Positions 1,934 through 37,038 of a DNA stretch of 39,604 nucleotides are shown here, piece after piece. This DNA is from an uncultured Planctomycetota bacterium. GTDB taxonomy: Bacteria; Planctomycetota; Phycisphaerae; Tepidisphaerales; Tepidisphaeraceae. The DNA is taken from positions 1-39,604 of the forward strand of contig CAWJEN010000002.1 in the NCBI GenBank assembly GCA_963841915.1, read 5' to 3'. Made by a program: the position numbers and the translations under genes. Within the stretch, counting starts at the first letter, position 1. Every line of letters begins with the position of its first letter. The notes under the pieces were generated by a model. It worked only from the letters and a program-made list of their open reading frames with translations, was not told the DNA's origin and did not search any database.

Positions 1934-4900
1934 ATGGGCAGCAGCGGTAGCGAATTGACGAAGACGAGTGGCGGTGGAGGAGCTGAGACGGTTGGAGGCA
2001 TCTGGTATCAAGGTCTCTATATCGTTCTTCAGGCCGTCGAAAGACTGTTAGCCTTCCAAGACATATCGGGGCCCGTCCAATTCGTCGCGGAACCAAGAAA
2101 TGGTGGGGATGTTCGAGTCACCAATCGGACGCGGCACCGCGTCACGCAGATCAAGAAGAAAGCCGGGGGTGGGTCGTGGTCGCTCGGGGACGTCATTGAT
2201 GAGGTGCTGCCTGACCTTTTTAAAGCCACTGCAGACGCTACCTACGACCCGACGAAGGCGTGGACCTACGAGTTCGTGACCGAGGGGCGGCTCGGACGGT
2301 GGAAGGAGGCGCTGACCTTCTTCCACAACCTCAGCGGGCTTGAGGCGGAGCAAGTTCAGACCGGCGGCAGCTGGATAGATGCATATGAGACACTCGATGA
2401 CGTTCAGGCCCTGAACCTCGGGAACAAGAACCTTGCGTCTCCTTATCAGAACACGCGTCGCGGATTGTTCGATCACATCGTGGATTGCCTGCGAGGTCCT
2501 GCACCGGAGAAGGGGAAGCCTGACGAGCGAATTGACGTCGAGGTGGGCCGGGAGCGAACATGGTGTTTGCTCCGCGGTTTCCAGTTTATTGGTGGTCGAT
2601 CTGAGGAGCATTGCCGTGCAGAACTGAGGCGACATCTGCTGCATATCGTCCCAAACCATTCCGCCGTCGATGATCTGCTAGACCAGATGCTCGGATGGAT
2701 CACGGATGCCTCGCGACAAGGTCACAAGGTCTTCACGCCCGAGGAGATGCTCGCCGGCTGCGGTCTTGAGGGAGTGGTGCCTGTCGGCGACCTCATCGCA
2801 CTTCGGGAGCGGACACAACGATCCGCGCAAGATGCCGTTCAAGCACTTGGATATATCGCGGGGCAGGATACTCGGCGCACTGTTTGGGGTGACGATGCGC
2901 TGGTAAGCTCCTCGACAACGCCTGTCGTCGTGACGGGTGACAGTGGCGACGGGAAGTCGTGGGCCCTGTACGCCGCGGCGGATCAAGCTACAACGTCCGC
3001 GGTCGTCTTCATCGACGCGAGCAATTCTGGCAAGCTGGACGCAGAGCAGCTCGTCAACCGCGCGGCGGAGCGAGTGTGGCAGGTTGGACTCAGCCACGAC
3101 AACCAGAAGACGATGGCTGCGCTCACTGAGCGGCTAGCTCAGACCCTCGGCAAGTCGATGGGCAGACCATGGCTAACGCTCTGCATCGACCAAGTCGATG
3201 ATCCCGTGCTGGCACGTTCGCTGGTTCAACAGCCGTGGTCTACCTGGGGCGTGCGGCTCATAATCGGAGTCTCGAACACGGCGCGCTCCGCGGCCGAGCA
3301 GGCGGGGAAGGCGGACAGCGTCTCTGCCAAGCACCACGCGGTGCGGCCCTTCTCGCTTCCGGAGCTGCAGAAGTATCTCGAAGCGCGGCTCGGACCAGCC
3401 TCTTGGAAGCGTGTTCCGCACGACGTTCATGACGTTCTCCGCAAACCTCAGCTAGCAAAGCTTTACGTTGACCTGAAGCTATCCGGCGAAGCGGGCGAGG
3501 AATGGCAACCGACGGACGAATACGCTTTGGTGGACGCATTTTGGCACCGGCTGGCTTCGACAGAGAACGGCGGACATCACCGCGATGAGCTACGACTTCG
3601 ACGACTCGCGATAGGAGTGGCCGAAGGTAAGCCTTATCCATGGTCGATCGATCAGGTGGATGAGGCAGATCTTAGCGACGAAGTGCTTAACCGCCTTATT
3701 CAAGCGGGGTGGCTTCGGCAGGTCGATGAAATCTACGACATGCCGCATGATCGCTTGCTCGGCTACGCGGTGGCACGGGCGATCATCGGTCGTTGCAGAT
3801 CCGAGAATCTTGATCCTAACGCGATCGCGGACTTGCTGGATGGAACAGAAGACCGCCCAAGACGTACACGCTTGGGTTACCTTCTGATGGACTGGTTCCA
3901 CCTCGCGTTAGGGAGTGGCGAGCAACAATCACGTGCGCCCGCCGTCTTGCAGCGTGTTGTCGAGAAGAATAATGGCTCAGCGGGCACATCAATACAAGAA
4001 GTGCTTCTGCCAACACTTGGCCAGAAGGTGATTCCGCTTCTCGTGAGCGAGTCGAAACGTCTTGCAGTGTCGGCACCGGCCTGGGAACTGCAGGCAAGCC
4101 TGCGGGGACTGGCGAAGGTTCTGGCTGACGCGCTTGAAGCTGATCGAGAGCGTGTTGTACATGATTTTCTCGATGATGGTGCTCATCAGATTCGGCTGGC
4201 GGGGCTGCACTTGATGTCGATGGTCGCAGCTCCCGGATTGCTGGATCGGGCGTGGGAGTTGCATCGAGAGATTCTCGATCATCCGGACCGTTACACGGCT
4301 AGAAACACCCGCGTTGATCAGTGGCAACACGTCTTACGCAGGGCATCATTCGATGCACTGGCGTTTAACCTGCCAGCACGGCCAAGCTGGATTTGCGACG
4401 CTGTAGAACAGGTCGAATCATCGGATCATCCTGATCAACTCGCGTGGCTCATTGCGCAACTGGAAGACGATGGAGCGACGTGGCAGGCTTGCAAGCACAG
4501 GTTGTTCGACGTTGTGGCGCAGCCGGACGGTAACAGAAGCCTCGCCCGAAACATCGGCCTCTGGCAAGATCATGACGAGCTGAAGCGTCTTGAGGGCCTG
4601 ACACAGCAGCTCCTCGGCAGCAAGAAGCTGGGTGCTGCTGACTGCGTAGCAGCGATGATCCGTCTGGACCCGGAGCGTGCTGTAGAGCTGCTGACGGAGA
4701 TCGACGCAATGCAGCTCTACATGTCGCGCCTCTGGCTGCTTCCTCCGCTGATGGCTGCGACTCCGCACAAGACTCAGGAAATCCTGCACGACCGGATCAC
4801 GTCACTGCCGAGTCCACTCGACGCTCTTCGTTGGTTTCAGGGTAACGCTGATTTCATGAGCGAAGCCATCTTGCAGACGCTGCTTGACAACTTGGACGTA

Positions 4901-21754: not shown

Positions 21755-22265
21755 GGCAGCGGGTGGAGTTCGGTGGTTTCAACAACAACAACGCGTGTGG
21801 TTCGCGTTCCGCCTCCTTTTAAACAAGTCGCAATCATCTGACAAGAGAGTTGCTGCGGATGGACGCAATATTTCGACTATCTGACGAGGTCGTGGGTGGC
21901 AGACAGGCGCAGGACCCGGACAGACCACCTGATTTGCCATCCGGCCGCCTTGCCATTGCGGCTTGTTGAAAATGCTTCAGGTGCGTTGCCTTCTCGATGA
22001 CAACCTGACTCATCAGCACCATCATTTTGCCTGCACGTCAGCCGACCGCGACGTCGCCATCAAGCTCGACCCGCCGATGTTCCTCATGCAGGGCGCCGAC
22101 GCCGCGCTCCCTGCCCTCGCCTGGCCGTTCCGCACCATCAACGCAATGCTTGCCGACACGGGCGACTTCTCGGATCGCCACGTCGACCAGCTACGCCGCC
22201 GTCGTCTGCGTCGGCTTCCGTTGCTGCTGCACGACGTCGCTCGTTTCCGCGTCCATAGCCCACAC

Positions 22266-22291
22266 GTCGGCGGAGGGTCGCCGCCCCTTAA
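22266..22291 (-). promoter_or_regulatory. sigma28/FliA-like promoter candidate
   Basis: Minus strand TTAAG-N15-GCCGAC, 9 nt before ATG 22256 of a 21-aa ORF. Confidence 0.4.
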
Positions 22292-22353
22292 CCGCGGGCC
22301 GCGGATCGGGCCGGTTCCGATACAAAGGGCGTTTCCAGACAGACAACGATCCC

Positions 22354-22626
22354 AGGGAATCCCTGGAAACTTTCCCGGATACCTTTGGAAGTTCCAAAGG
22401 CATGTTTCCAACTTCTAAAGGCATGTTTAGAAGATCCCGGGGCATGTTTCCAAGACGTAAGGGTATCTTTCCAACCTCCAAAGCCATGTTTACGAGTCGC
22501 AAGGGCACCCTTAGAAGACGCCCGGGCATGTTTCCAACTTGGAAGGCCATCCTTCCGAGTTTCAAGGGCATGTTCGCAAGTCGCACGGGCACCCTTATGA
22601 CTTCCAGGGGCACGCCAGACAAGCCT
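22354..22626. repeat. 21-bp degenerate tandem array, ~13 units (consensus AAGGGCATGTTTCCAAGTTCC)
   Basis: Units start at 22354+21n with G4, A7 and A16 nearly invariant and T11 mostly conserved. No indels. Confidence 0.9.
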
Positions 22627-22714
22627 CCGGGCAGTCGGCGATCCTGCGTCTACCACGTAACGACCCTGACGGACGGCTTTACCCCCCGCGGCCCGCGCCG
22701 GTTAGAGTCCGAGC

Positions 22715-23514
22715 ATGACCCACCACGACGCCTTTCCGCCCGGCGTGGCGGCGAAGCTCAAGGCGTACGTCTACCGCCTCATCGACCCGCGGAACGGCGA
22801 GACCTTTTATGTCGGCAAGGGCAGAGCCAACCGCATCTTCGCCCACGCCCGCGGTTTCCCCCCACCCTTCCCCCTACCTCCACCGACACCAACGAGAGCA
22901 CCCCCACCGACGACAGCACCGAAGACGATGAGCTGAGCGACAAGCTCCGCCGCATCCGCGACATCCGCAGCAGCGGCTTCGAGGTGCAGCACGTCATCCA
23001 CCGCCACGGCATGGACGAGAAGACCGCCTTCGCCGTCGAGGCCGCGCTCATCGACGCCTACCCGGGCCTGACGAACATTGCCGGCGGCACGCACAACGCC
23101 GACGTCGGCACGATGCACGCCGAAGAGATCATCCGCCGCTACGAGGCGAAAGAGGCCACCTTCGAGCACAAGTGCCTGCTCATCAGCGTCAACCGCTCTG
23201 CGGCCGAGCGGGATCTGTACGATGCGACGCGGTTCGCCTGGCGGCTCGACCCGAAGCGGGCGAAGCAGGCCGACGTGGTGCTGTCAGTCATCCGCGGCGT
23301 GATCGTCGGGGCGTTCGTGGCCGACGCATGGCTGCCCGACGAGCCGGGCACGTTTACGACACCGGACGGCCGCGAATCGAGGCCCGGCCGCTGGGGCTTC
23401 GTCGGCCGCGAGGCTCCGCCCGAGTTGTCGAACCCCTACATCGGCCGCCGCGTGCCGGACGGCATGCGTAAGCAAGGGGCGTCGAATCCGATTCTCTACA
23501 GTTGGCGAAAGTAG
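22715..23514 (+). pseudogene. LEM-3-like GIY-YIG nuclease, split by a -1 frameshift at ~22855-22875
   Basis: 22715 frame: [25 protein letters not shown]. It continues in the -1 frame as KLRRIRDI...HRHGMDEKTAFAVEAALID...LTN...G...NPILY. The break falls at GGTTTCCCCCCACCCTTCCCCCT. Confidence 0.85.
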
Positions 23515-23693
23515 CAGAGCGAAGTCGGGCATCAGCCGTCCGCGTCGAGCGCTTCCTTCGCCCGCGCCGCCTCGCTAAGCAGGCCGTCGGCCTTGCCGCC
23601 GGGTGCCGGTGTGGCAGCCAAAGGGTGCCACAGCAACCTCTGCTAAGACGGAACGACCTAAGCCGGCTGAAGCGGTAATGTCGGGAACGGGCT

Positions 23694-24920
23694 TTACGAC
23701 CTTGCACTGATCTTGCTCAAACGCTCGAGGAACGACGCAGCGCGGCGGAGCTTCTGGCGGGCGGCCTCTTCCAGACCGTCCGGGTTGAAGTGCATCACGT
23801 CGTTGCGAATCTCACGGACGTCGTCGAGCATGCGGACGAACGTCGAGCGGTCCAGCGGCGTGCCCAACTTCTGCCAGTGCTGCGGGCGGTCGAGGAATCG
23901 TTGCATCTCTCCGAAAGTAAGGTCTGCCGCTGATTTGATGCGACGGTTCGGGTCTTGCTCGGGCGGCTTCGCCGCTTGAATGGCTTCAAGCGTGAACGCA
24001 GATGAGATCAAATTTCTGACCTGCTTCTCGATGTCCTCGATGATGAGGAACGGACCAGCCAAGCGCTCAAACTGGCCAACCATGTCGGCGGACGTTAGTA
24101 GTCCACACATCGCCCCGTGGCGACGCACCAAAACCCGCTCGTGTTGACGTATGAGCGTCGCAACGGTCAGGAGGTTGTCCTCCACGTCAACATAGTATGG
24201 CTGCGCTTCGACGCAGTCGCCGGCACGCCCGCACGTCCCGCCGAGCGCTGCCCGCTCCGCGATCGACTGCCACGTGATGATGCCTTTGATGCTTCGTATA
24301 CCCGTGCCCACCGGCAGCTGACTGAAGTCGTGCTGCATCATGATCTGCACGGCCTTCGCAACACTATCGTCGGGCGCGACCATCGTCGGCACCCGGTTGG
24401 CGGCGTCGAGGATTCCGACACGCCGAGTCGGCTCGTCATCCGGCTTCAGCGGCGTTCCCGTCACCACCGTCACATCTCCATCCTCGGCCTCTCCATCACC
24501 CATGGACTCGTCGGGCAGCAGGGTCTCGGCCTCATCGTCCTCGATATCCGCCTGCTCATCGTCCTCGACCTCCGGAAGAACGGTATCGGCAGGCAAGACA
24601 TCGCCTTGCTCTGGTTCGGCGTACGCGGCTGACGCATTCGAAGCGTCAATTGCGACAAAGCGGACGCGGTAATCCTTTGGCACCGACTCGTACGACGGCT
24701 CGGTCCGCAGGCCGAGTTCCGCGAGTGCCGCATTGATTCGCGAGCGGACTCGATGACCGCGTCCGCGTTGATTAAAGTAGTAGAGAAGCGTTTTTACCTT
24801 TCGCTGCGGCGTTCCGCCTGCGTCGACTTCCGCTTTAATATCGCGGAGATTCGGCGGGATACCATTGCTGTCGGATTGATCTGAGACCTCGCCCGCCGTT
24901 GTGTACGCCTGCTCTTCCAT
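23694..24920 (-). CDS. CBS-domain protein with C-terminal HEPN-like (RxxxxH) domain
   Basis: ATG 24920. Small basic N-domain, acidic linker, CBS pair (MMQHDFSQLPV, GIITWQSI, GLLTSAD), then DLTFGE...W...IRNDVMHF. Confidence 0.8.
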   Translation of the reverse strand: MEEQAYTTAGEVSDQSDSNGIPPNLRDIKAEVDAGGTPQRKVKTLLYYFNQRGRGHRVRSRINAALAELGLRTEPSYESVPKDYRVRFVAIDASNASAAYAEPEQGDVLPADTVLPEVEDDEQADIEDDEAETLLPDESMGDGEAEDGDVTVVTGTPLKPDDEPTRRVGILDAANRVPTMVAPDDSVAKAVQIMMQHDFSQLPVGTGIRSIKGIITWQSIAERAALGGTCGRAGDCVEAQPYYVDVEDNLLTVATLIRQHERVLVRRHGAMCGLLTSADMVGQFERLAGPFLIIEDIEKQVRNLISSAFTLEAIQAAKPPEQDPNRRIKSAADLTFGEMQRFLDRPQHWQKLGTPLDRSTFVRMLDDVREIRNDVMHFNPDGLEEAARQKLRRAASFLERLSKISARS

Positions 24921-25117
24921 GGCTACATCATGACGCCGCTCGTTAAGCGTCACAAGCCGCGTCACCGCCACGAGACGTTGCCGGCGAATCATTTCCGCGG
25001 CAGATCACCTCATCAGAATGGCACGCGCAGACGACGTGCTCCTCCCGCCGTCTTGCTACCACCTGATCCGATCGGGAAAAGTTGTTGCAGTAGCGACCGG
25101 ACCGCCGGTACGCTTAG

Positions 25118-25194
25118 AGAAGAGGCCTGCGGGCAAAAATCGGCTTCACGCCGTGTGGCGACCTTCGGGGCGTCCTATACCCGCGGTCTCTTCT
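25118..25194 (-). ncRNA. Structured ncRNA candidate immediately 3' of DUF3800 (DUF3800-associated RNA motif-like)
   Basis: Minus strand AGAAGAG-ACC-GCGGG-TATA-GGACGCCCCGAAGGTCGCC-ACA-CGGCGTGAAGCCG-ATTTTTG-CCCGC-AGGC-CTCTTCT. This gives a long closing stem with two internal hairpins, beginning 7 nt after the stop. Confidence 0.65.
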
Positions 25195-25201
25195 TTTTTA
25201 T

Positions 25202-26053
25202 CTACTCAGCTTCGTCTGGTTCCGGGCACAGCGGACGCGACTGGCTGTAGGTGCCCGTCCCGGGCTTTGCATCGAGATCAACCACTTCGCCGACCTGTGG
25301 CCAGATCAGCCGAGCGTGCCGCGTCTCGCCACGCTCGAAGAACCGTTGCAGCGGCCAGAGGTAGTAGTCGATCGCCTGCAACGCTGCGTGCTCCGCGGTG
25401 CCCATGCCGGTGACGGTCACCTTCGTCTCGCGACGGAAGCCGAAGCTGTCCTCGAATGCGTCCTCAGCCTTGTGAATGGCGGCGTCGAGTGCTCGCGTGC
25501 GATTACGTGCGCCTCGGGCGGAGAAGCAGACCTTAACTTCGCCCGAGATGCCGCCTTGGAATCGCTCGAACAGACGCGTCGTCGAGGCATCGTAAAGCTC
25601 ATTCTTGTTGTACCGGTAGCTGGGATCTGCCGCGTTTCGAGCCTGAACCTCTGCGAGCACCTTCCACTTATTCCGCACGACGACGTAGAACCGATCCTGC
25701 CGTGAGAGCAGGTACCGGTAGACCTCCCGCCGAACCTCCGGCACGTCGTCCTTCGCGTGGAACTTCTCGGCCGTCTTTCGCTGCGACGGTTGCATCGACG
25801 GCACGTCGCGAAAGTAAGGGTCGGCTAGCAGCGAAGCTCGAAGCTCGGCCAGTTCCTTGTGGAGCGTCTCGGGGTCGTGGACGACGAGCTTCCCCATCAG
25901 GAAGTACTTCGAGCAGCCGTTCTTGCCGACGATGACCTGCTTCTTCCGATTGAAGAGCGTCGGATCGCCCGCCTCGTCGACAAAGACGTGCTGGACCGTC
26001 GGGGGCGGCGGGGTGAGGCGACGCCCCGGCAGGTTGCGGAACAGGTCATCCAC
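25202..26053 (-). CDS. DUF3800 family protein (RNase H-like acidic motifs)
   Basis: FVDEAGD near the N-terminus, FHAKDD, LQAIDYYLWPLQR near the C-terminus. GTG start overlaps the methyltransferase TGA (GTGGATGA). Confidence 0.85.
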   Translation of the reverse strand: MDDLFRNLPGRRLTPPPPTVQHVFVDEAGDPTLFNRKKQVIVGKNGCSKYFLMGKLVVHDPETLHKELAELRASLLADPYFRDVPSMQPSQRKTAEKFHAKDDVPEVRREVYRYLLSRQDRFYVVVRNKWKVLAEVQARNAADPSYRYNKNELYDASTTRLFERFQGGISGEVKVCFSARGARNRTRALDAAIHKAEDAFEDSFGFRRETKVTVTGMGTAEHAALQAIDYYLWPLQRFFERGETRHARLIWPQVGEVVDLDAKPGTGTYSQSRPLCPEPDEAE

Positions 26054-29000
26054 CCGCGGGCGTCCCTCCCGCGGGGTTGCCGGTGGCGAAGGCGTCGGGC
26101 CAGCCGCCGTGGGTTTCGATGGCCTCATCGATCTCGGCCATGAGGCGGATCGTCTCCTTCAGGGCGACGACGATCTTGCCGTAGTGGGCGATGTCGTCGG
26201 CCGAAAGCGTGCGGCCCTTGCGGTCCTTGAGCCACTTGTGGCAGACCTGGTAGCCGCCGATCTGGAACCGCCAGACGTCCTCCGGCACGCCATGGAAGCC
26301 GTAGGTGCCGGGCTGCGTCGCGATCTGCCCGGCCTTGGCGTCGGTCTTCTTCGCGTCGAGCCAGACGGTGCCGGTGTCCTTGCCCTCGTCCTTCGCCCAC
26401 CCGACGCGGCCGACTTCCGGTCCATCCGGGCCGTCGTAGGTCGTGATCGGCGTGTCGAGCAGCGGCGACTCGAGCAGATGGAGATCGAGCACTTGCCGGC
26501 CCAGCTTGGCGAGATCGACGAAAACGTCGCGTCCGCCCGGGATCGGGACGCGGGGGAAGTCGAGCTTCAACATCGGCTCAAACCGTCGACGGTACTCAGG
26601 GCTGTATAGGACAGAGTAGACAAAACCCAGCACGTCCTCAGGACCAAAGCTGTCAACAAGGTCACCGCTCCCGTCGCTGACAAAGCCTAGGTCGTTCGCA
26701 GCCTCAATAGCTTCCACATAGTCCGGGTTGAGATTCGGACGTCTGCCATTCTCGCCCTCGGGCCAGCAATTGAACATCGGCGACGAATTTGCCTTGCCGA
26801 CATTTGGATAGAGGTAGAGCGGGAATAAGTAGTTTACCTCCTTGAGTGAGACAGAGTGGTGCTGGATCATGCTTCTGCTTGCGAATGCATGAGCAAATCC
26901 ACTGCCTATCTCGACGTTTTTGGTTACGCCTACGGCCAAGTTGGTCCCGGCAAGCATCTGTGGCACTGCCTCTATGCGAGGCCAGTCCACCATCCAAGGA
27001 ACGTAGTAAACTCGCCGCGTATCGAACGGCCGCTGCAAAATCGGCTTACAACGCTTATCCCAATCTGGATCTGCCCTCAGCTTCCTTCGCGCCTGCGGGA
27101 GCTTCCAGCTTCGCGAGTCACCAGCGGGATATCGTTTTGAGCCTTTGCCACCAAAGTACTTCTGGCGGAGCTCATGATCTGCCAGATTCTCATCCCGCAA
27201 CTCGCGCACTCGCCGTTCCAACAAATCGTCACTGAAGTCAATCACAAAGTCGTCGCGAGCTGTTACGATCCCCGCAACGTTGACCTGCATTACATCTGCG
27301 ATAGTAGGCCATGCCGAGTAACTGCCCAACTCACTCTGATCGAGCGAATCGAACAGGTAGAACGGCTCGGCCGACGGCATCGACCGCCAATTGGAACCTG
27401 CCGCCACGTTTGCTTCGAGCCAGTCGTACTTGGCTTCCTGCTCACCCCAAAGGTCGGCGTGGCGGACAGATCCCGGTTCTCCTGCATCGCCGATGTTGAT
27501 AACAAACAGGCCGATTGCAACACCCTGCTGAATTTCGAAGACGTTGACGTCTCTGCCGCCTCCGGGAACAGCCTCCTTCTTCTTGAGATTGCCATGCAGG
27601 TCAAGGACGCGGAGGTCATCGAACGTCTCCATGAGCGAACATCGCATGCCGCGGAAGGTCGGGTTGTCGATGAAGCCGTGGTTGGTGATGTAGCCGTGAA
27701 CGCCGACGCCCGTTTGCTTCAGGAGATATTGGGAGTAGCGGGTGAACTTGACGTAGTCGTCTTGCAGCCAGACCTTCCGTTCACCCAACGGCTCACCATC
27801 GACGTGGTAGTAGCTGTCCGTCTTCGTGCCGTCCGGCAGCTTGCCTTTGAGCAGGCCGTCGATCCACGGCGTCATGTTGGAAGACAGCCCGGCGTACGGC
27901 GGGTTCCCGGTGACGACGGTGAAGCGTGTGTGCTTCTTCACCGCGTTCACCTGCTCCGCCTCGTGCGCGAGGGCCGGCACCATCTGCTCGAACTCACCGC
28001 TGAAGTCCTGAGCCGGCTCTAATGCATTCGTCAGGTACACCCGCGCCCGCTCGTCGTCGCCGAACTTGTAGCCGGTCTCGAAGAGCTTCAGGCCGATCTT
28101 CATGTGGGCGATGGCGTACGGGGCCATCATCAGCTCGTAGCCGTGCAGCCGGGGCAGCAGGTGCTTCGGGACGTACTCGTTCCACTTGTTCAGGACGAAA
28201 AGGTCGCCGTGGCCCTCCTTCTTCCACTTGGCGACCATCGTCGCGTGGATCAGGTCGATGATCTCGACGAGGAACGTCGCGGTGCCGGTGGCGGGGTCGA
28301 GGATCTGGACGAACGGCGTCGACGGGTTGATCGGCTTCTGCACGATGTCCGGCCCCTCGACGTGCGGCGTCGTCGGCAGCTTCAGGTAGGGGTGCTTCTC
28401 CAGCATCTCGCCCCACGTCGTCGTGTCCGCGAGTCCGTCGTCGAGGCCGAACTCGGTCTGCAGCAGCTCGTGGACGCTGCGGACGATGTAGCCGACGACG
28501 GCGCGAGGCGTGTAAAAGACGCCGCGCTGCATCCGCTTCTTCGCGTCGTAGACCTTCAGGAAGTCCTCGTAGAAGTAGATGACCGGGTCTTCCTTGAGAT
28601 CCCGGTTGCCGAAGTTGCGGAGCAGGTTCTTGACGTCGGTCTCGCGAAGCATGTCGACGACGTCGTTGACGCCGAGCTCGTCGAAGTCGATGCCAACAAG
28701 CCGGCCCGCACCTTCGTCATACCGCCGGCCGCCGACGTTCAGGAAGTGCTGGAGCAATTCCTTCAGGAACGGATTGGTGACGGGCACTAGGTCGACAAGG
28801 TTGTCGGCGGTGAAATTAGCTTCCTTGCTCGCGCGAGCGGACAGCAGGCCGTAGGCGATGGTCTGGGCGTAAGTATCGGCGAAGTCGTCGGGCGTCAGGT
28901 CGTGGAGCAGGGCCGCCTTGAAGGCGTTCATGAGGCTCGTGATCGGGCCCTCCTCCGTCTCGATCTTGAGGGCAGCGTTGCAGCGTTTGCGGATGACCGT

Positions 29001-29645
29001 CGCGAGTTTCGCAAGCTCATTGGCGAGCTGCTTCGAGTCGTTGATGACCTGCCGGTGCTCGCGGGTGAAGGCGCTTCGCCAACGGGACCGCCAGGCGTCG
29101 AGATCGTCCCCATCCTTCGGCCAGGCGAGCTTCTCCTCGAGCGTGTGCTGGACGTCGTTGAGCGTCAGGATCGTGTCTTCATCGTCCCAGCCGAGCACCT
29201 TGAGCGTGTCCCGGTCGCCCTGCTCGGCGTTGTCGGTGAAGTGGGCAAACGTGATCTGCTCGTGGTCCGCCGTCCCATACGAGTTGACGAATAGCAAGTC
29301 GTGTTTCGCCCACGCCGCCCGGCTTGCCGCGCCGGCGTTCTGCCGCTTTTTGACGACGAGTGACCGGAGGATGCGCCGCAGGGCGACGACGGGGAGCGGG
29401 CCCGGCTCGAACTCGATGAAGAAGATTCCCCACGGCTGGTCAGTCGCGAGTGGGCGGAGCTGCTTGATCTCCTTGATCTTCTTGGCGATCGTTTTATTGA
29501 TGCCGAGCTCTTCGGGCGTGTAGTCGAAGGTGAGTTCCTCGAACGTGAGTCGCTCGATCGGCCAGTCGAGCTCCTCTTCGAGGTAGCCGACGAGCGAGTC
29601 GAAGTTGGTGATGCTGCGAAGGCTTTGGCCGGCGAGGTCAGACAT
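26046..29645 (-). CDS. Type ISP/IIG-like N6-adenine DNA methyltransferase with C-terminal specificity domain (no helicase domain in cis)
   Basis: FADTYAQTIAYGL, GVFYTP, motif I ILDPATGTATFL, motif IV GNPPY, RPFD, FPLYLY, DFPRVP, IGGYQVCHKWLKDRKGR. Confidence 0.9.
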   Translation of the reverse strand: MSDLAGQSLRSITNFDSLVGYLEEELDWPIERLTFEELTFDYTPEELGINKTIAKKIKEIKQLRPLATDQPWGIFFIEFEPGPLPVVALRRILRSLVVKKRQNAGAASRAAWAKHDLLFVNSYGTADHEQITFAHFTDNAEQGDRDTLKVLGWDDEDTILTLNDVQHTLEEKLAWPKDGDDLDAWRSRWRSAFTREHRQVINDSKQLANELAKLATVIRKRCNAALKIETEEGPITSLMNAFKAALLHDLTPDDFADTYAQTIAYGLLSARASKEANFTADNLVDLVPVTNPFLKELLQHFLNVGGRRYDEGAGRLVGIDFDELGVNDVVDMLRETDVKNLLRNFGNRDLKEDPVIYFYEDFLKVYDAKKRMQRGVFYTPRAVVGYIVRSVHELLQTEFGLDDGLADTTTWGEMLEKHPYLKLPTTPHVEGPDIVQKPINPSTPFVQILDPATGTATFLVEIIDLIHATMVAKWKKEGHGDLFVLNKWNEYVPKHLLPRLHGYELMMAPYAIAHMKIGLKLFETGYKFGDDERARVYLTNALEPAQDFSGEFEQMVPALAHEAEQVNAVKKHTRFTVVTGNPPYAGLSSNMTPWIDGLLKGKLPDGTKTDSYYHVDGEPLGERKVWLQDDYVKFTRYSQYLLKQTGVGVHGYITNHGFIDNPTFRGMRCSLMETFDDLRVLDLHGNLKKKEAVPGGGRDVNVFEIQQGVAIGLFVINIGDAGEPGSVRHADLWGEQEAKYDWLEANVAAGSNWRSMPSAEPFYLFDSLDQSELGSYSAWPTIADVMQVNVAGIVTARDDFVIDFSDDLLERRVRELRDENLADHELRQKYFGGKGSKRYPAGDSRSWKLPQARRKLRADPDWDKRCKPILQRPFDTRRVYYVPWMVDWPRIEAVPQMLAGTNLAVGVTKNVEIGSGFAHAFASRSMIQHHSVSLKEVNYLFPLYLYPNVGKANSSPMFNCWPEGENGRRPNLNPDYVEAIEAANDLGFVSDGSGDLVDSFGPEDVLGFVYSVLYSPEYRRRFEPMLKLDFPRVPIPGGRDVFVDLAKLGRQVLDLHLLESPLLDTPITTYDGPDGPEVGRVGWAKDEGKDTGTVWLDAKKTDAKAGQIATQPGTYGFHGVPEDVWRFQIGGYQVCHKWLKDRKGRTLSADDIAHYGKIVVALKETIRLMAEIDEAIETHGGWPDAFATGNPAGGTPAGG

Positions 29646-29693
29646 GAAGGCAGAGGATAAAGCAACGAGGGCGAATGTGTGAGAATGTGCCAC

Positions 29694-30502
29694 CTAGATC
29701 TTGCCGCGTTGCTTCTTGGGGAGCATGCCGCGCTTGCGAGCGGTCGAGAGGCGCGCCAAAATTCATGGTGGCGCAGCGACAGGCCGGTGGCGCGGTTGAA
29801 GGCGTCGAGCAGCCACGCGAAGTCCGCCGTATACGGCAGGACGTCGACCGTGTGATCGCTGTTGCGGTAGAGGCCGATCAGGATCTGCTTCTGCGGTTCG
29901 GTCAGCGTGCTCCAGACCGACAACGGCCGGGCGGTGCGGGCGAGGAACGTGTCACGCCAGCGGAGGGTCCAAGTGTCAACGTCGATCGGCTGCGCTGGGT
30001 CGGGCCATCGGAGGCCGGCCCGCACCTGCGCTTCGATCCAGTCAAGGCGTTGCTCGGGCTCGTCGGGGTGCCAGCCGAGGAGGCGGACGTCTCGCTTCTG
30101 CGTTGCATGGCGGGTTGTCGCGTGGGCGAAGTCGAGGCGGCGCGTCGTGCTCCGCCCGCTGGCGGCGACGAGCAGGAGGTCGGCCGGCGCGAAGCAGGGG
30201 CGGGACAGGTCACGACTGCCGGCCAGCCGGGCGAGGATACGTTGGACGAGCGACAGCGGGAGGTGGCGTTGCTCGAACGCGACGTAGAAGAGTGCCCACG
30301 CCTGCTTCGAGTCGACCGGGCGGAGCTGCTTGAGCTCGACCACCCGTGCCGCCGCATCAGCGGGCAGGTTCAGGTCGGCTTGGGGGTCATAGTCGAAGGC
30401 GAGGTCGTTGGCATCCAGTTCCGCCACCGGCCAATCGAGCTCGTCCCGCAGGTACGCCAGCAGGCCATCGAAGTCGACGATGTCGCCAAGGCGAACAGGC
30501 AT
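29694..30502 (-). CDS. Accessory protein: paralogue of the methyltransferase N-terminal domain fused to a small basic C-terminal domain; apparent 1-nt frameshift at ~29750
   Basis: Residues ~1-186 align by eye with the MTase N-terminus (FD.L..YL..ELDWP, FDY.P, KQLRP, W..F...FE...LP, DLL, FAH, LGW, L.WP, W..RWR..F). Adding one C at ~29750 gives ...EFWRALSTARKRGMLPKKQRGKI* ending at 29694 (269 aa). Confidence 0.7.
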
Positions 30503-30514
30503 GATGCGGGCGAA

Positions 30515-33500
30515 TCAGTTCAGCTCCATCCAGCACAGCAGGACCGGCTTGACCGTCGCCGGAACCTGAAGCGAACGGAGGTACGTGTTCTTCAGGTGAC
30601 GTTCGACCCGCTCGCGGGTGTCGCGGAGCGTCTGGCGCGGGAGCTTCGTCACCCGCGGCGTGAGCTCGATCGACCGGATCGTCTCGGCGATGCTCGGTGC
30701 ATCGTCGGCGATGTCGCCGTCGGGTAGCGGGACGAGCATCCACCGGCAGGGCCCGCCCTCGGTGGTCCATTCGCCGTCCCGGATCGTCGGCAGCCGGTAG
30801 CAGAAGAAAGCCGCCTGTGCGCCGGTTGTGGGGTGCTCGCGGCCCGAGTAGACGCGAAGGGGCAGGGCATCGAGCCGTTGCCGTAGTTCGGGGTCGTTCT
30901 TGAAGAGGGCGTCTCGTTCGAGTTCGAGCACCTCCATCGCACTCTTTTTGCCCTCGTAGGCCTCATTGAAGTGCTGGAGGTCGCGGTACTCGTCCTCGCC
31001 GGTGAGCAGCTTGCCGCCCTCGATGCCGAGGGCCTTGCTGATCCGAAGCGTCTTGCGGGTGACGCGGCTGTAGAGCGTGAGCAGCTCGTTGAGTTCGTCG
31101 GGCGGCAGGAAGTTGTAGTAGACAATCGCCTCGCGGGTCTCGGCCTGATCGGGGTGATCGGCGGCGAGATGTTCCTCGAACTCCGGGTTCCGCCGACGGT
31201 CAACGCGGCCAATCCGCTGCATCAGGCGGACGGGGTTCCAGTGCAGGTCGTAGTTGATGAGCCGGGCCGCGTCCTGCAGGTTGAGGCCTTCCGAAAGCAC
31301 GTCCGTGCTGATAAGGATGCGGATCTCATCCTCGCCGGCCTCGGCGAGCTCCCCGGTTGACGAGTCGTTGTAGTAAGGGCTGAACCGCTCGATAATCCGC
31401 AGGCGGCCACGCTGGTTCGTGCGACTGTCGACTTGGGCGACACCCTCGATGTCCGCAGCCTTGAGCCGCCGGACGAGGTAGTCGGCGGTATCGGCGTACT
31501 CGGTGAAGATTAGCGCCTTGCCGGTCGACAAGGCCTTGTCGGTCTGAAGGAGCTTGACGAGCGACTTGAGCTTGTCGTCGTTCCGGTGGTCGAAGCGGTC
31601 GAGCTCGCGGAAGAACTTGACGAGCTGCGCAAGGTCGCCCTCGTCCCCGAGCGTCGCCTCCAGCATCTCCTCGACCTTGTAGTCCTTGCGAGAGAGCTTG
31701 TCGTAGCTGTCGGCAAACTCGATCTCGACGACGTCTTCGTCCGTGTCGTCGTCGTCCACATCCTGGAACAGGTTCGGCTGGCTCTCGCGGACCGCTTCGA
31801 TCAGCTTGATGTTCGTCTCGTGCCAGTCCCTGAGGCGCCGCTTCTCCTCGTCGGTATCGACGTTGGCCTCGCACCAGACGAGGAGCTTAACCAGCAGGCG
31901 TTCGCACGAGTGGCGGAACGCTTCGACGGAGCTTTCAAACCGCTTCAGGAAGCTCGTGCGGACAAGGGCGACGACCGCCTTCTGACGATCGGCCTCGCCG
32001 GGCTGGATGTCCTTCTCCGACCCCTTGTAGTAGAAGAGCGGGTAGTAGAGCGGGAGCGTGAAGAGCGGGTTCTCGTTCTCGAATGCGGTCTCGAGCTCGT
32101 TGAGCAGCTTTCCGTAGACCTTCTTAAGCGAGTACTTCACGACAACGGGCGGTCGCCGGGGCGGGAAGGCGACTTGCCGGCCGCCCTCGCGTTGCTGCTT
32201 CTCCTTGACGAACGCACGGCTGCGCTGCACGACGAGTGCACCGACGAGCGGGTCGCGGGCCATGATCTCCTGCGCCTCCTCGTTGTTTACAAAGAGCGGC
32301 ATCTCGTCGCGCCCGTCGTCGTCGAGCTGCTTCTCCATCCGCTTAAAGTGCGCGGTCAAGGAGTGGATGCCGAGGGTTTGCCCGAAGTGGCTCTCCTGAC
32401 TCTGCGTGAACAGCTCGATCATGTGACGCAGGTCCTTGAACGAGTTGTTGATGGGCGTCGCGGTGAGCATGAAGACCCGCTTCGCCGTCCCGTCGCTGTT
32501 GGCAATGATGTCGGCGAGCTCCCGGTAACGCGATCGGCGCACCTGCTCGAAGAGCATGGGGTTTGCCTTCGATCGCGGCGATTCAATAAAAGAGACGCCG
32601 GTGCCGGCCGGGCCGGGATTGCGGTAGTGGTGGGCTTCATCGATGACGAATGCGTGCGCCTGCTCTTTGGCCGCCTCAAAGGCGTCCCGCTTCTTCGGCT
32701 GGCCAAGGTCGGTGTGGGCCGCCACGTAGAGGTTGCTGAACGCTCCGGCCCCGAGCTTTCGCAGGTATCGCTTCAGGTTCGGCTTCCAAACCGACTCCAC
32801 CGCGCCCTTCGGCGCAAGCAGAACGACGTTCTTTTGCTCGCGGACGACGAGGCGTTCGATCAGCATGAGGCCGACGAACGTCTTGCCGAGACCGACGCCG
32901 TCGCAGAGAAACGCACCTCCGTGCTGTTCCGCGATCTTGATGAGGTTGCGGTATCCGTCCTGCTGGTAACCGTCGAGCTTGCCGAACATCTTCGACCGCT
33001 CTCGGTCCCACTTCTGTTCGCCGGGCGTGACGTCGAGGAATAGCTCGTGAAGCGCCTTCGCGTAGACGTCGAAGGGCGTGTACTCGGCCACATGGCGTTC
33101 GATGACCTTCAGAACCTCGACCGTCACGTCTTCCGCCTTCTCCCAGTGGCCCTCGAACCACTCCTGCAGCACGGTCACGGGACGGCCCGTGATCTGCACG
33201 TTCAGCTCGATGTTCTGCGTGAGCCCGGGATAGGTCAGGTTGGAAGAGCCAACAAGCGCTGCCGAGCCCACCACGTCGAGCCGGCCGTGCGTGATGTATG
33301 CCTTCGCGTGGAATTTTTCCTTGCGGTAGACCTTGCACTTGATCTTGCCGGTCTTGATGCCCTCGACGATCGCCGGGACGCCCTCAAGGAAGTCGTTCTT
33401 TTCCTTCTCGTTCTCGAGGCTGGCGTCGAGCGTCTCCTTCATGCCGGCGAGCCCCTTTTCGAAGGCGCCCTTCGTCCTTAGCGAGACCTCTTCACCCATC

Positions 33501-33697
33501 AGGATGCGAATCTCGTCCACCTTCTGCCACTCGTCTTTGAGGGCGAGGAGCGCCCCGATCTCGAAGTAGCCGGTGGCAATGTCGATTCTCTTCGCAAGCT
33601 GGCACCAATCGTGGAGGTAGCGAACGACCTTCCAGTCTTCATCTGAATTATCGACAATGAAGAGTTCACTGCCGGTGGTGCTGGTTCGCTGAGGCAT
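30515..33697 (-). CDS. PLD (HKD-type nuclease)-SNF2/SF2 helicase fusion
   Basis: IATGYF, FHAKAYI and GSSNLT (PLD); DGVGLGKT, IDEAHHYRN, LTATP, TDVLSEGLNLQ, WNPVRLMQRIGRVDR (helicase). Confidence 0.92.
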   Translation of the reverse strand: MPQRTSTTGSELFIVDNSDEDWKVVRYLHDWCQLAKRIDIATGYFEIGALLALKDEWQKVDEIRILMGEEVSLRTKGAFEKGLAGMKETLDASLENEKEKNDFLEGVPAIVEGIKTGKIKCKVYRKEKFHAKAYITHGRLDVVGSAALVGSSNLTYPGLTQNIELNVQITGRPVTVLQEWFEGHWEKAEDVTVEVLKVIERHVAEYTPFDVYAKALHELFLDVTPGEQKWDRERSKMFGKLDGYQQDGYRNLIKIAEQHGGAFLCDGVGLGKTFVGLMLIERLVVREQKNVVLLAPKGAVESVWKPNLKRYLRKLGAGAFSNLYVAAHTDLGQPKKRDAFEAAKEQAHAFVIDEAHHYRNPGPAGTGVSFIESPRSKANPMLFEQVRRSRYRELADIIANSDGTAKRVFMLTATPINNSFKDLRHMIELFTQSQESHFGQTLGIHSLTAHFKRMEKQLDDDGRDEMPLFVNNEEAQEIMARDPLVGALVVQRSRAFVKEKQQREGGRQVAFPPRRPPVVVKYSLKKVYGKLLNELETAFENENPLFTLPLYYPLFYYKGSEKDIQPGEADRQKAVVALVRTSFLKRFESSVEAFRHSCERLLVKLLVWCEANVDTDEEKRRLRDWHETNIKLIEAVRESQPNLFQDVDDDDTDEDVVEIEFADSYDKLSRKDYKVEEMLEATLGDEGDLAQLVKFFRELDRFDHRNDDKLKSLVKLLQTDKALSTGKALIFTEYADTADYLVRRLKAADIEGVAQVDSRTNQRGRLRIIERFSPYYNDSSTGELAEAGEDEIRILISTDVLSEGLNLQDAARLINYDLHWNPVRLMQRIGRVDRRRNPEFEEHLAADHPDQAETREAIVYYNFLPPDELNELLTLYSRVTRKTLRISKALGIEGGKLLTGEDEYRDLQHFNEAYEGKKSAMEVLELERDALFKNDPELRQRLDALPLRVYSGREHPTTGAQAAFFCYRLPTIRDGEWTTEGGPCRWMLVPLPDGDIADDAPSIAETIRSIELTPRVTKLPRQTLRDTRERVERHLKNTYLRSLQVPATVKPVLLCWMELN

Positions 33698-33821
33698 TTA
33701 CTGCTCCGCACCCTACAGGACGCAGCGGCTACAGGCAAAGCGTTGGCAGCCTGAGCCTCGTGCTGGTTTTCACACCTGAAGAGTTCAGTCGAGAGGCGGG
33801 TAAAGTATTCGCGGGAGCGGC

Positions 33822-33847
33822 TCAAGTGCTCCTGCGGCTCGGCCGAC
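33822..33847 (+). promoter_or_regulatory. sigma28/FliA-like promoter candidate
   Basis: TCAAG-N15-GCCGAC directly before copy 1 of the 37-bp repeat. Confidence 0.45.
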
Positions 33848-33854
33848 CAATTAT

Positions 33855-33891
33855 CTGTCGGCGGTTTCAGCGGCAACGTGGCCGTGCTCCC
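33855..33891 (+). repeat. 37-bp perfect direct repeat, copy 1
   Basis: CTGTCGGCGGTTTCAGCGGCAACGTGGCCGTGCTCCC, identical to 37002-37038. Confidence 0.95.
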
Positions 33892-34054
33892 CAATCAAGC
33901 CCGCGTCGCCGCGGCGAGTGATCAGGCGGAACTAAAGGAGGTCGACCAGACGGAGCGGCACCTGCTGTACGTGGCGTGCACCCGCTCGCGGGACCGGCTG
34001 CTCGTGACGGGACTGGAACCGGGCTCCGAATATCTGGTAGATATGCGGCTATGA
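33884..34054 (+). pseudogene. C-terminal remnant of a UvrD/Rep-like SF1 helicase
   Basis: VLPNQARVAAASDQAELKEVDQTERHLLYVACTRSRDRLLVTGLEPGSEYLVDMRL*, containing motif VI LLYVACTR.R. Confidence 0.8.
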
Positions 34055-34202
34055 CGGCCCTGCTTGATCGCGCTCGCGTGCGATCAATTTGGGTAATGCG
34101 AACTTTCCATCGCTCTGCACTCAGAAGCCACTATGACTGCCTCAGCAGTAGCAAACGGGTGAGCTGCGGTCGTTGAAGCAAAGCCGCCATATAATATTTG
34201 AT

Positions 34203-34436
34203 ATGAGTTATCAGCGGGAACTGACGTGGCGGGACGCGATCCAGCGGGTGCTGCGGGAAGCCGGCGAGCCGATGCACTACGCAGACGTCGGCGACGAGAT
34301 CGCCAAGCAGCAGCTGCGGACCAACCTAGGGGCAACGCCGGCGAGTACGGTGACAGCAGTCGTTACGAGCGAGATAAGGGAACATCGTTCTTTTTTGCCC
34401 GCATCCCCTTCTTGTAAACCCAGCGTCTATTCATAA
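34203..34436 (+). pseudogene. HARE-type winged-HTH N-terminal fragment (truncated at ~34385)
   Basis: LTWRDAIQRVLREAGEPMHYADVGDEI....GATPASTV is followed abruptly by AT-rich non-coding-like sequence. Confidence 0.6.
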
Positions 34437-34501
34437 AGAACGATATCCCGTCTTCTGCCAGATATTCTATTATCTATCACTAATCGCTCTAGGGTCTTGC
34501 C

Positions 34502-35494
34502 ATGCACTACCTCACCCGCATCTCGTACAACGGCTCGGGCTGGCAGCACCCGACGAGCGACGCTCGCGACCAAGAAACGGGCGACACCTACAACCAGAAC
34601 TTCGGCTTTGGCCATGAGGACTGGCTATTCCGATCGGACTGGCTGATCCATGGCTGGCGATACGCGTTCCTGCAGGGGGTCAACAGGAGCCATGATCGGC
34701 TCGTGCGGGAGGCGGAAACGTTTGACGTCACCTTGTTCACCATCGACGCGGCGAAGGCCCGTCGATACGTAGCGACGATCTGCAATGTCGAATGCCTCGA
34801 CACGCAGCAGGCCGAAGACGCATTGAGCGTCTTTAAGCAGCGCGGCTGGTACGCCCAGATGGAGCGTGAAATCGTCGCGGCAGGCGGGGACGTTTCCGCT
34901 CTAGGTCGGTGGGATTGGGCGAAACACGTTTTAAACCTCCGCTACCGACTCGACAACGTGACGCGGCACGACCACGAAGACGATTTTGAGCCGGGTGATT
35001 GGATAAGGCGCTTCAACCGTTACCAGTTATATGACTTTGGCGCGCAGCAGCCTGAGGCCTCGAAGCAGCTGTTGCGCCGCGGGCATACTGCCCTGAATCT
35101 GCCATCGACTCAGCCCTACGCGAAGAAAGGGTCGCAGGCGACGATGATCACGCCCGAACACGCGCGTATGCAGGTGAAGCTTGTGGAGATGCTGCGCGAG
35201 CGGTATCCCGGGGCGGAGATTCACTGCGAAGACGGCTTTGTTGACGTGACCGTGCGGACACAGGACGTGTTCCAGCTCTATGAGATCAAGTCGGATCTCC
35301 GGCCGTCTACAGTCATCCGTCTGGCACTCGGGCAGATCCTCGAGTACGCCTATCACCCGACGCGAAAGCATCCGCACCCGACTGAGCTGTTCATCGTCGG
35401 CCGGCAGGAGCTTGACGAGGACGACCGCGCGTACCTGGAGCAACTTCGCGAGCGATTTGCGCTGCCGCTGTCTTACCTTGCCGTGCCGCTCTGA
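34502..35494 (+). CDS. Putative restriction-type endonuclease: N-terminal recognition domain plus C-terminal PD-(D/E)XK domain
   Basis: N-terminus RISYNGSGWQHP...GFGHEDWLF. C-terminus H..MQ..L...E..FVDV...YEIKS....IRLALGQILEYAY. Confidence 0.75.
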   Translation: MHYLTRISYNGSGWQHPTSDARDQETGDTYNQNFGFGHEDWLFRSDWLIHGWRYAFLQGVNRSHDRLVREAETFDVTLFTIDAAKARRYVATICNVECLDTQQAEDALSVFKQRGWYAQMEREIVAAGGDVSALGRWDWAKHVLNLRYRLDNVTRHDHEDDFEPGDWIRRFNRYQLYDFGAQQPEASKQLLRRGHTALNLPSTQPYAKKGSQATMITPEHARMQVKLVEMLRERYPGAEIHCEDGFVDVTVRTQDVFQLYEIKSDLRPSTVIRLALGQILEYAYHPTRKHPHPTELFIVGRQELDEDDRAYLEQLRERFALPLSYLAVPL

Positions 35495-35677
35495 GTTATC
35501 TCAAGGCGTTCCGAGAACAGGCCACTTGCGGTTGTGTCCGCTGTACTTACCGATGCGGCTTGACTAGCCATAGATGAGATCGCTTAGGCGAGGCCAAACT
35601 TTTCGCCGAAGAATGTAAGGGTGGCCGGATTGGGGGGCCTCCGGCTGGACATTGTTGTCAGCGGTTACACTGCGAAG

Positions 35678-36799
35678 GTGCCCGTTCAACACGCTCTTTG
35701 GAATGTCGCGACCGTTCCCACGCCGCTCACGGCAAGCGCGCTCGTCAGCGAGCAGGAGCTCGAGGACATGATCGTTGCCTCGCCGGAGATCCTCTCGAAC
35801 GAGTGGATGCTCATTGGCCAACAGGAGCAGACCGGCCTCGGTGGGCGGATCGATCTGCTCGCCATCGCCCCGGACGCGTCGCTCGTCCTCATTGAGCTCA
35901 AGCGGAACAAGACGCCCCGCGAGATCGTCGCTCAAGCGATCGACTACGCCTCGTGGGTGGAGACGCTCTACGCGGAAGCCATCAGCGAGATCTACCAGCG
36001 CTTCTCCAAGGGGCAGAACCTCCGCGAGGCGTTCCGAGAACGCTTCGGCCAACCGCTGGAGGAGGAAGCCCTGAACACGTCCCACCAGATTGTTGTGGTT
36101 GCGGCGGAGCTGGACGCTGCCAGCGAGCGCATCATCGGCTACCTCAATGCCCGCGACATCGCCATCAACGTGCTCTTCTTTCAGGTCTTCCAGCACGGTG
36201 CCGAGCGCCTGCTCAGCCGGGCGTGGCTGATCGACCCCGGCGAGACGCAGGCGAACGTCGCCGCGACGACGACAAAGTCGCTCGCGAAGCAAGAGCCGTG
36301 GAACGGCGAGTACTACGCGTCGTTCGGTTACGACCGCTCCTGGGAAGAGGCACGAAAGTACGGCTTCATCAGCGGCGGTGGCGGCACGTGGTACAGCGGA
36401 ACGTTGAAACAACTCAGTCCGGGCGATCGCGTGTGGGTTAACATCCCCGCCACCGGCTACGTCGGCGTCGGACGGGTGACGGAGGAACGAGCTGCCGCCA
36501 AGGACTTCATCGTCCCGACGCCCGACGGCGACCGGCCTGCTCTAGAGGTTCTTAGCAACGGCGACGCCTTGAAGGCCAACGCGAACGACCTGGAAAAGAC
36601 CGAGTACTTCGTGCGCGTGGAGTGGCTCGACAGCGTTCCGAAGGAAGAGGCCTTCAACGAGATCGGCCTGTTCGGTAATCAGAACACCGTCTGTCAGCCG
36701 CGGACGCCGAAGTGGCGCAAGACGCTCGACCGGCTGAAGCACGCATTTCCGGAGTGGGACACCGCCGCCCCCCCCAATCGCAACCTGACGACCGTTTGA
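35678..36799 (+). CDS. NucS/EndoMS-like (DUF91) PD-(D/E)XK nuclease with C-terminal EVE/PUA-like domain
   Basis: GTG 35678. EQELEDMI, GRIDLLAI, LIELKR, AQAIDYA. C-terminus SWEEARKYGFISGGG, LSPGDRVWV, GYVGVG.V. Confidence 0.8.
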   Translation: MPVQHALWNVATVPTPLTASALVSEQELEDMIVASPEILSNEWMLIGQQEQTGLGGRIDLLAIAPDASLVLIELKRNKTPREIVAQAIDYASWVETLYAEAISEIYQRFSKGQNLREAFRERFGQPLEEEALNTSHQIVVVAAELDAASERIIGYLNARDIAINVLFFQVFQHGAERLLSRAWLIDPGETQANVAATTTKSLAKQEPWNGEYYASFGYDRSWEEARKYGFISGGGGTWYSGTLKQLSPGDRVWVNIPATGYVGVGRVTEERAAAKDFIVPTPDGDRPALEVLSNGDALKANANDLEKTEYFVRVEWLDSVPKEEAFNEIGLFGNQNTVCQPRTPKWRKTLDRLKHAFPEWDTAAPPNRNLTTV

Positions 36800-37001: not shown

Positions 37002-37038
37002 CTGTCGGCGGTTTCAGCGGCAACGTGGCCGTGCTCCC
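37002..37038 (+). repeat. 37-bp perfect direct repeat, copy 2 (5' leader of the Fn3-like gene)
   Basis: Identical to 33855-33891. Here it extends into a hairpin GTCGG(37004)...CCGAC(37041). Confidence 0.95.

Follow-up and report, generated by a model that had tools for sequence, protein, structure and literature searches.

MANTIS, as far as the accessible part of its description goes, pairs a PLD-SF2 effector with an m6A methyltransferase (MTase) of group alpha, requires a DUF499 AAA+ ATPase together with a small co-regulator, and in some operons adds a small regulator (10.64898/2026.09.23.753747). HKD-helicase BR systems with inactive REase domains are treated in the accessible portion of PMC12839542, and restriction-modification (R-M) controllers and SauUSI in that of PMC12707154. 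Here, we describe an operon that, set against these accounts as far as they could be consulted, shares a PLD-SF2 helicase effector and an N6-adenine MTase with MANTIS and with BREX-related type 2 (Gao_RL). It lies in a stretch of 39,604 nucleotides from an uncultured planctomycete of the Tepidisphaeraceae, the whole of which is called the window below. The operon is not a member of MANTIS. Its MTase carries a C-terminal TRD, the accessible MANTIS description has no counterpart of the gene studied here (gene X), and no DUF499 linked to the operon was found among the scanned window neighbours or in three other carrier genomes of unstated completeness (0/3). The source genome does encode a DUF499 ATPase on another contig (C4:37138-45854), where a match to an SNF2-type helicase falls in the same 9-kb span; this may be a separate BREX-related locus.

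The system was also compared with other restriction enzymes. Type ISP enzymes (LlaBIII, LlaGI) and DrdV-like Type IIG/IIL enzymes have the same MTase core and Type_ISP_C recognition domain, and the helical spacer of the window MTase is also that of single-chain paralogues. A Type ISP enzyme is a single polypeptide that combines nuclease, helicase, MTase and TRD; in the window, as in all loci described below, helicase and MTase are encoded by two genes. The window system differs further in its PLD nuclease and in a stand-alone extra copy of the MTase N-terminal domain (N-domain). The DrdV-like enzymes begin with an active PD-(D/E)xK nuclease, but the front domain of the window MTase lacks the motif. 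An ATP-driven PLD nuclease is, in the accessible accounts of SauUSI and CglI, common to both of these and to the window system; SauUSI, however, has a built-in SRA reader where the putative targeting module here is a separate, optional gene, and CglI has a separate helicase subunit where nuclease and helicase here form one chain. X also resembles R-M controller (C) proteins as a small helical gene, of predicted DNA-binding type, in an R-M operon, but it lacks their HTH families, sits mid-operon and carries a fused MTase-derived domain. The best explanation of X is that it is an accessory subunit of a two-gene restriction-type system of PLD-SNF2 helicase and N6-MTase. Neither X nor its C-terminal module is mentioned in the accessible parts of PMC12839542, PMC12707154 or 10.64898/2026.09.23.753747, and none of the titles and abstract openings examined describes this gene, although supplementary tables (e.g. 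the large ones of PMC12839542) might list such loci. X is an optional accessory gene, real and conserved, and apparently undescribed.

Results

The operon is read from the minus strand. Its core gene (30515-33697) encodes a PLD (HKD-type) nuclease joined to an SNF2-type helicase (1060 aa; PLDc_2, SNF2-rel_dom/ResIII and Helicase_C), which matches PADLOC C3a139 HKD+Snf2 at E 5e-58. X (29694-30502) follows, beginning at 30502 after a gap of 12 nt from the helicase stop, and comprises an alpha/beta N-domain of residues 1-189 (29936-30502) and a C-terminal module (C-module) of about 72 aa, modelled as three helices and a basic tail in a Myb/SANT/MADF-like fold (29697-29917). The last gene (26046-29693) encodes an N6-adenine MTase whose C-terminal specificity domain is of Type ISP (Type_ISP_C at E 2.5e-73, N6_Mtase); its open reading frame spans 1215 aa from a GTG at 29693, and homologues favour a start at the ATG at 29645. 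Matches of this MTase to DrdV, LlaBIII and LlaGI are confined to residues 445 onward; its own N-domain (29058-29645) stands where single-chain paralogues hold an active PD-(D/E)xK nuclease. The initial annotation had described the front of X as an old duplicate of this domain, and both points hold: residues 5-186 of X align with the MTase at 35% identity (65/188, E 9e-34), the N-domain motifs it quoted are found in X, and at the DNA level the two genes are alike in short patches only, the best being 75% over 80 nt.

The same annotation had treated 29694-30502 as one gene, tacitly joining two frames. The interval is 809 nt, not a multiple of three; the frame that begins at the X start reads ...HHEFWRASRPL, passes the quoted tail and continues to 29165 (445 aa). 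The tail itself, LSTARKRGMLPK with its stop at 29696-29694, lies in a different frame from the start, but the joined reading agrees with the family, in which 13 of 13 full-type homologues (about 270 aa) stay in frame across the point concerned. Relative to these homologues, one base is missing in the CC at 29751-29750 (29749-29752), inside helix 3 of the C-module. The joined X reading therefore fits the family, but it is not what the assembled letters of the window encode. A programmed frameshift was considered and is unnecessary, the homologues being in frame.

Whether the missing base belongs to the organism or to the assembly was approached through a proxy for assembly quality, in which 300 kb of another genome of the genus, with 163 ORFs, was compared with the source genome. 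The orthologue filter passed 109 of them (45,000 aa), and four of the 109 had frame changes, five in total; this puts residual assembly indels at about one in every 27 kb, which for a gene as long as X means a chance of roughly 3%. These include single-base shifts in rpsB (C1:104200) and atpA (C6:246496), and since these too are frameshifted, the break in X may be an assembly error. In argH (C5:839877-841303) several apparent frame changes were seen; residual indels in these genes call for caution with other frameshift findings from this genome. The window copy retains 82 of 88 near-invariant family positions, similar to an in-frame homologue (P0001) that has lost seven, and its pairwise dN/dS is somewhat higher (0.19-0.49 for the N half, 0.32-0.74 for the C half). 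We consider it about equally probable that X in the source genome is mis-assembled or recently broken.

The operon is embedded in a defence cluster (22027-36799) that also holds a PD-T4-3-like GIY-YIG protein (22027-23514), a DUF3800 protein (25202-26128), an unannotated 330-aa ORF (34502-35494) and a PDC-S11/NucS-like protein (35621-36799), the last of which also occurs near the operon of L014. Downstream of the ISP-type MTase, a CBS-domain protein is encoded both in the window (23694-24992, minus strand) and in L013 (12581-13666); the two are 44% identical, share a conserved helical region at the C-terminus and may represent an accessory effector that recurs in such loci. An identical 37-nt stretch is found at about 33855-33891 and at 37002-37038 of the window and at C6:1339391-1339427 of the source genome, and a further 166 nt, near 34203-34368, are repeated at C6:1338527 next to another helicase-like region.

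Intact homologues of X do exist in the same gene context, which speaks against the one-off decaying duplication that the initial annotation had named as a refutation of its reading. Twenty in-frame homologues were gathered, several of them close kin and hence not independent. In a protein search, 13 of 20 matches are X-type (245-292 aa, 49-63% identity), the other seven matching in the N-domain only, and a search of representatives gave two further X homologues, one at 40% identity. Scans of sequence collections, with patterns derived chiefly from the C-module, yielded ten loci. Complete X stands between PLD-SNF2 helicase and MTase in all five complete loci, X is cut off within its C-module in one of the ten (L008), and a solo 72-aa C-module gene fills the helicase-MTase slot in four of the ten. 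The initial annotation regarded the C-module as standing in for the MTase and TRD portion, a view that these loci show to be too simple: it is an independent domain and, in other genomes, the sole occupant of the slot. All three named genomes among the loci belong to the Phycisphaerales. The MTases behind X in L007 (1819-2487) and L008 (about 910) have an internal stop and a frame change.

The slot gene is optional. Among 400 genomes of the phylum, the helicase was present in eight others, with the downstream region readable in six, and the MTase was directly adjacent in each (6/6); among 400 genomes of the class, the N-domain was present in 11 others, as a single copy directly after the helicase C-terminus (11/11). 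No slot gene is present in any of the 14 distinct helicase-MTase operons of the two surveys, which had three genomes in common. A search of 40 relatives did not find X, and neither of its domains was matched on plasmids.

A tree of N-domains (37 rows, midpoint root, truncated P0012 left out, no one-clade test) separated the 20 X N-domains from the rest by a well-supported branch, with the MTases of L013, L010, L007 and L008, not that of the window, as sister. In a tree of C-modules (52 rows, only 73 columns), X and the slot-solo C-modules group at 95/97, with X nested inside as sister to the solo of L013. These placements are consistent with one fusion of the C-module to a copied N-domain in an L013-like operon. 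The C-module, found there by itself in four of the ten loci, is the older occupant of the helicase-MTase slot. A recent duplication from the adjoining MTase was rejected, X being 36% identical to its own neighbour and up to 41% to other MTases.

The MTase behind X varies. It carries Type_ISP_C in the window and is of the Eco57I/TaqI_C kind in L009 and L012; other loci have TaqI_C, or no detected recognition domain, instead of Type_ISP_C. The X proteins of L006 and L012 are 89% and 86% identical in their two halves, yet their MTases differ: that of L012 is Eco57I/TaqI_C, while that of L006, typed by its visible N-domain only, is 59% identical to the ISP type of the window. The data thus support persistence of X while the MTase behind it changed type. 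These N-domains also bear on a proposal in which the N-domain of X pairs with the MTase's own, giving the MTase rather than the helicase a second DNA-binding arm. Single-chain paralogues hold a nuclease domain at this place, and such domains often self-associate; the N-domains of the Eco57I-type loci, however, are only 24-36% identical to X, and a partner surface would need to have tolerated that change. We regard this pairing as improbable.

For every unsaturated pair, dN/dS is below 1 in both halves of X, and in the least saturated pair (L006/L012) it is 0.14 for the N half and 0.17 for the C half; judged by these ratios, both halves are under purifying selection. The ratios weigh on the idea that X is a passenger relic, in which recombination left an old MTase front end on a small gene and the C-module alone is functional. 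A solo form exists, and MTase exchange in the operon offers a route to such a fusion, but the N half is constrained as much as the C half, keeps X-specific invariant residues and is full length in 18 of the 20 in-frame homologues (P0005 and P0012 start late). A relic is accordingly the most doubtful of the readings considered here, and we give it very little credence.

The N-domain, of alpha/beta type, has no match in Pfam, NCBIfam, PADLOC or PDB. It occurs in at least 937 longer protein clusters. Among the best 240 of 1483 matches, 236 were examined and no further fusion was seen: 191 run into the MTase spacer, 25 end within 25 aa, and the remaining 20 have tails resembling shifted or truncated MTase. 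A subset of ISP-type MTases with this N-domain (P0194, P0200, P0224 and others) also carries PF00717, presumably the LexA-like S24 peptidase. In single-chain paralogues with the same helical spacer, 25 of 29 loci have a PD-(D/E)xK motif at the N-domain position, and the N-domain has a helix and strand order compatible with the REase fold at that position; the motif is absent from 24 aligned N-domains. Profile comparison of the N-domain with 19 HsdR cores and 25 DrdV-type nuclease domains gave hhalign E-values of 0.41 and 0.17, within the range of shuffles, against 3e-5 for the positive control. A dead-nuclease origin is thus suggested by position alone. In fold searches with the full X model, the N-domain gave weak rows, SLFN12 409-524 (Z 5.0, rmsd 3.4 over 102) and a TSEN subunit (Z 3.5); a viral structure library had no match at E<=0.001 and the Atlas no usable match. 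The constant adjacency of this domain to the helicase makes a helicase-docking role plausible.

The C-module has no Pfam, PDB-sequence or NCBIfam match, and no Myb or MADF entry appears among Pfam or PDB sequences even at E<=10. Its profile nevertheless recovers 652 clusters at E<=0.001. Among the best 150 of these, 34 are solos of 64-98 aa; of the longer ones, 68 were scanned, and they carry AXE1 (8), AAA_14 with or without DUF4143 (7), glyoxalase (4), DUF3644 (2), ArgH (2), Mrr_N (1), DinB (1) and hydrolase (1) domains, 42 having no Pfam match. The module heads the DUF3644 and AAA_14+DUF4143 proteins, follows the Mrr_N domain, and in many fusions is present as a tandem pair. Across the Phycisphaerae such pairs occur on their own or in fusion with ArgH, AXE1 or DinB, frequently with a thiamine-phosphate-kinase-like gene lying just downstream; the source genome itself encodes a glyoxalase-like protein ending in a tandem pair (C5:656364-656792, L026). 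The solo C-module gene of three genomes (L002, L003, L015) either lies behind a Fic gene or overlaps with it.

The AlphaFold2 model of the C-module has three helices and no strand (pLDDT 86). Of 48,161 chains compared, the closest to it is the DNA-binding domain of Zeste (Z 8.3, rmsd 2.2 over 64), a borderline score, in the range common for helical bundles, that can reflect a common arrangement; GT-1 (6.5), a UFL1 chimera and Sap1 (6.4) follow at 6.4-6.5, then mostly Myb, SANT, homeodomain and winged-helix rows, and Zeste is again on top with the full X model (Z 7.6). Foldseek found nothing at E<=0.001, Zeste being given the best probability (0.60; TM 0.70, E 2.6). With Zeste, GT-1 and Sap1, members of the Myb/SANT/MADF trihelix group, the modelled C-module shares the three-helix arrangement of about 64 residues, and with the group also tandem pairing, a basic tail and a conserved Trp in the third helix; it differs in its identity of about 10% and in being bacterial, members of known taxon coming mostly from Planctomycetota. 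Helix 3 together with the tail has a basic character (median charge +6), and the conserved residues include several aromatics. Judged by the model, the C-module probably binds DNA. SANT-type relatives bind proteins, not DNA.

The initial annotation had envisaged X as an alternative adaptor that redirects the helicase to other, possibly modified, DNA. The adaptor part gains from the DNA-binding-type fold of the model, the position of N-domains behind the helicase (11/11) and the retention of X across a change of MTase; nothing points to redirection to modified DNA. A stronger form of that last idea has the C-module read a modified base and turn the PLD-helicase on modified phage DNA in the manner of SauUSI, which joins PLD, helicase and methyl reader in the accessible part of PMC12707154. 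The several conserved aromatics of the C-module could be invoked here, but they suit the core of a Myb-like fold, non-defence enzymes are the fusion partners of many family members, and the model consists of three helices without strands. SRA, EVE, YTH and PUA readers are beta-sheet folds, unlike this model; an HTH-type domain can read methylated DNA, as does the winged helix of DpnI. Base reading by the C-module seems to us distinctly improbable.

Discussion

The results point to an accessory protein built from two parts, and we tentatively favour, at somewhat less than an even chance, the reading in which X tethers a DNA-binding C-module to the helicase-nuclease by way of the same surface as the MTase. 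The data support its history: in some Phycisphaerales the helicase-MTase slot was already filled by a free three-helix gene of 72 aa, which was then joined to a duplicated MTase N-domain, on trees that fit one event, and selection has maintained the fusion, also where the MTase behind it changed type. The N-domain would be the surface by which the MTase chain grips the helicase-nuclease, and the C-module would contact DNA via helix 3 and its basic tail. In that case X would be a competitor of the MTase for the helicase, and the C-module would select the DNA to which the helicase is tethered, so that the helicase would be loaded at, or parked on, sites independent of the MTase recognition sequence. 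Several observations count against this reading: a Z of 8.3 is common for helical bundles and the Foldseek E is 2.6; the solo C-module persists in the slot without an N-domain, so its basic role can do without a tether; the housekeeping proteins ArgH, glyoxalase, AXE1 and DinB carry tandem C-modules, which indicates no defence-specific job; gene adjacency is no proof of contact between N-domain and helicase; and the pairwise dN/dS of the window X is somewhat raised.

Alternatively, the C-module may be a controller-like transcription regulator of the operon, with the N-domain sensing or sequestering the helicase-nuclease until the host genome is methylated. In favour of this, the operon is of R-M type and contains a small basic helical gene that is optional and can occur by itself, and Fic and IrrE-like genes are neighbours of solo relatives. 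Controller or repressor genes exist in R-M operons and in MANTIS, according to the accessible parts of PMC12707154 and 10.64898/2026.09.23.753747. On the other hand, X sits mid-operon, the C-module has no Pfam match to controller-type HTH families, and the six slot-bearing loci have no upstream motif in common beyond shuffles (9-12-mers in 300 nt each, upstream of the helicase); scans for promoters, terminators and operators gave nothing above chance. In addition, L006 and L009 already have an HTH_17 gene of their own ahead of the helicase, and L012 has a broken one. This excisionase-like gene abuts the helicase start (L006 1082-1249, L009 4534-4761, L012 about 4565-4735); a stop interrupts the L012 copy, and none was seen upstream in the window. 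We consider a regulatory role unlikely, though not negligible.

Returning to the tether, a broader and more speculative extension, which we hold to be doubtful as a whole, is that the MTase N-domain is a portable helicase-docking tag, spare copies of which have been fused to other DNA-binding modules (here a bacterial Myb/MADF-like one), giving the PLD-helicase a second, methylase-independent targeting arm; the C-module family would then be a bacterial branch of a mainly eukaryotic transcription-factor fold. Independently of its role in X, the C-module is a domain of 652 clusters that has no Pfam name and, in the model, a Myb/MADF-like fold, and it merits a family entry.

X isolates a candidate docking domain in a protein of 270 aa, making the way in which a nuclease motor and a recognition subunit are joined directly testable. 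Two-gene operons of PLD-helicase and MTase are common, and if X does redirect the motor, it would show that plug-in adaptors can retarget a restriction machine in a modular way.
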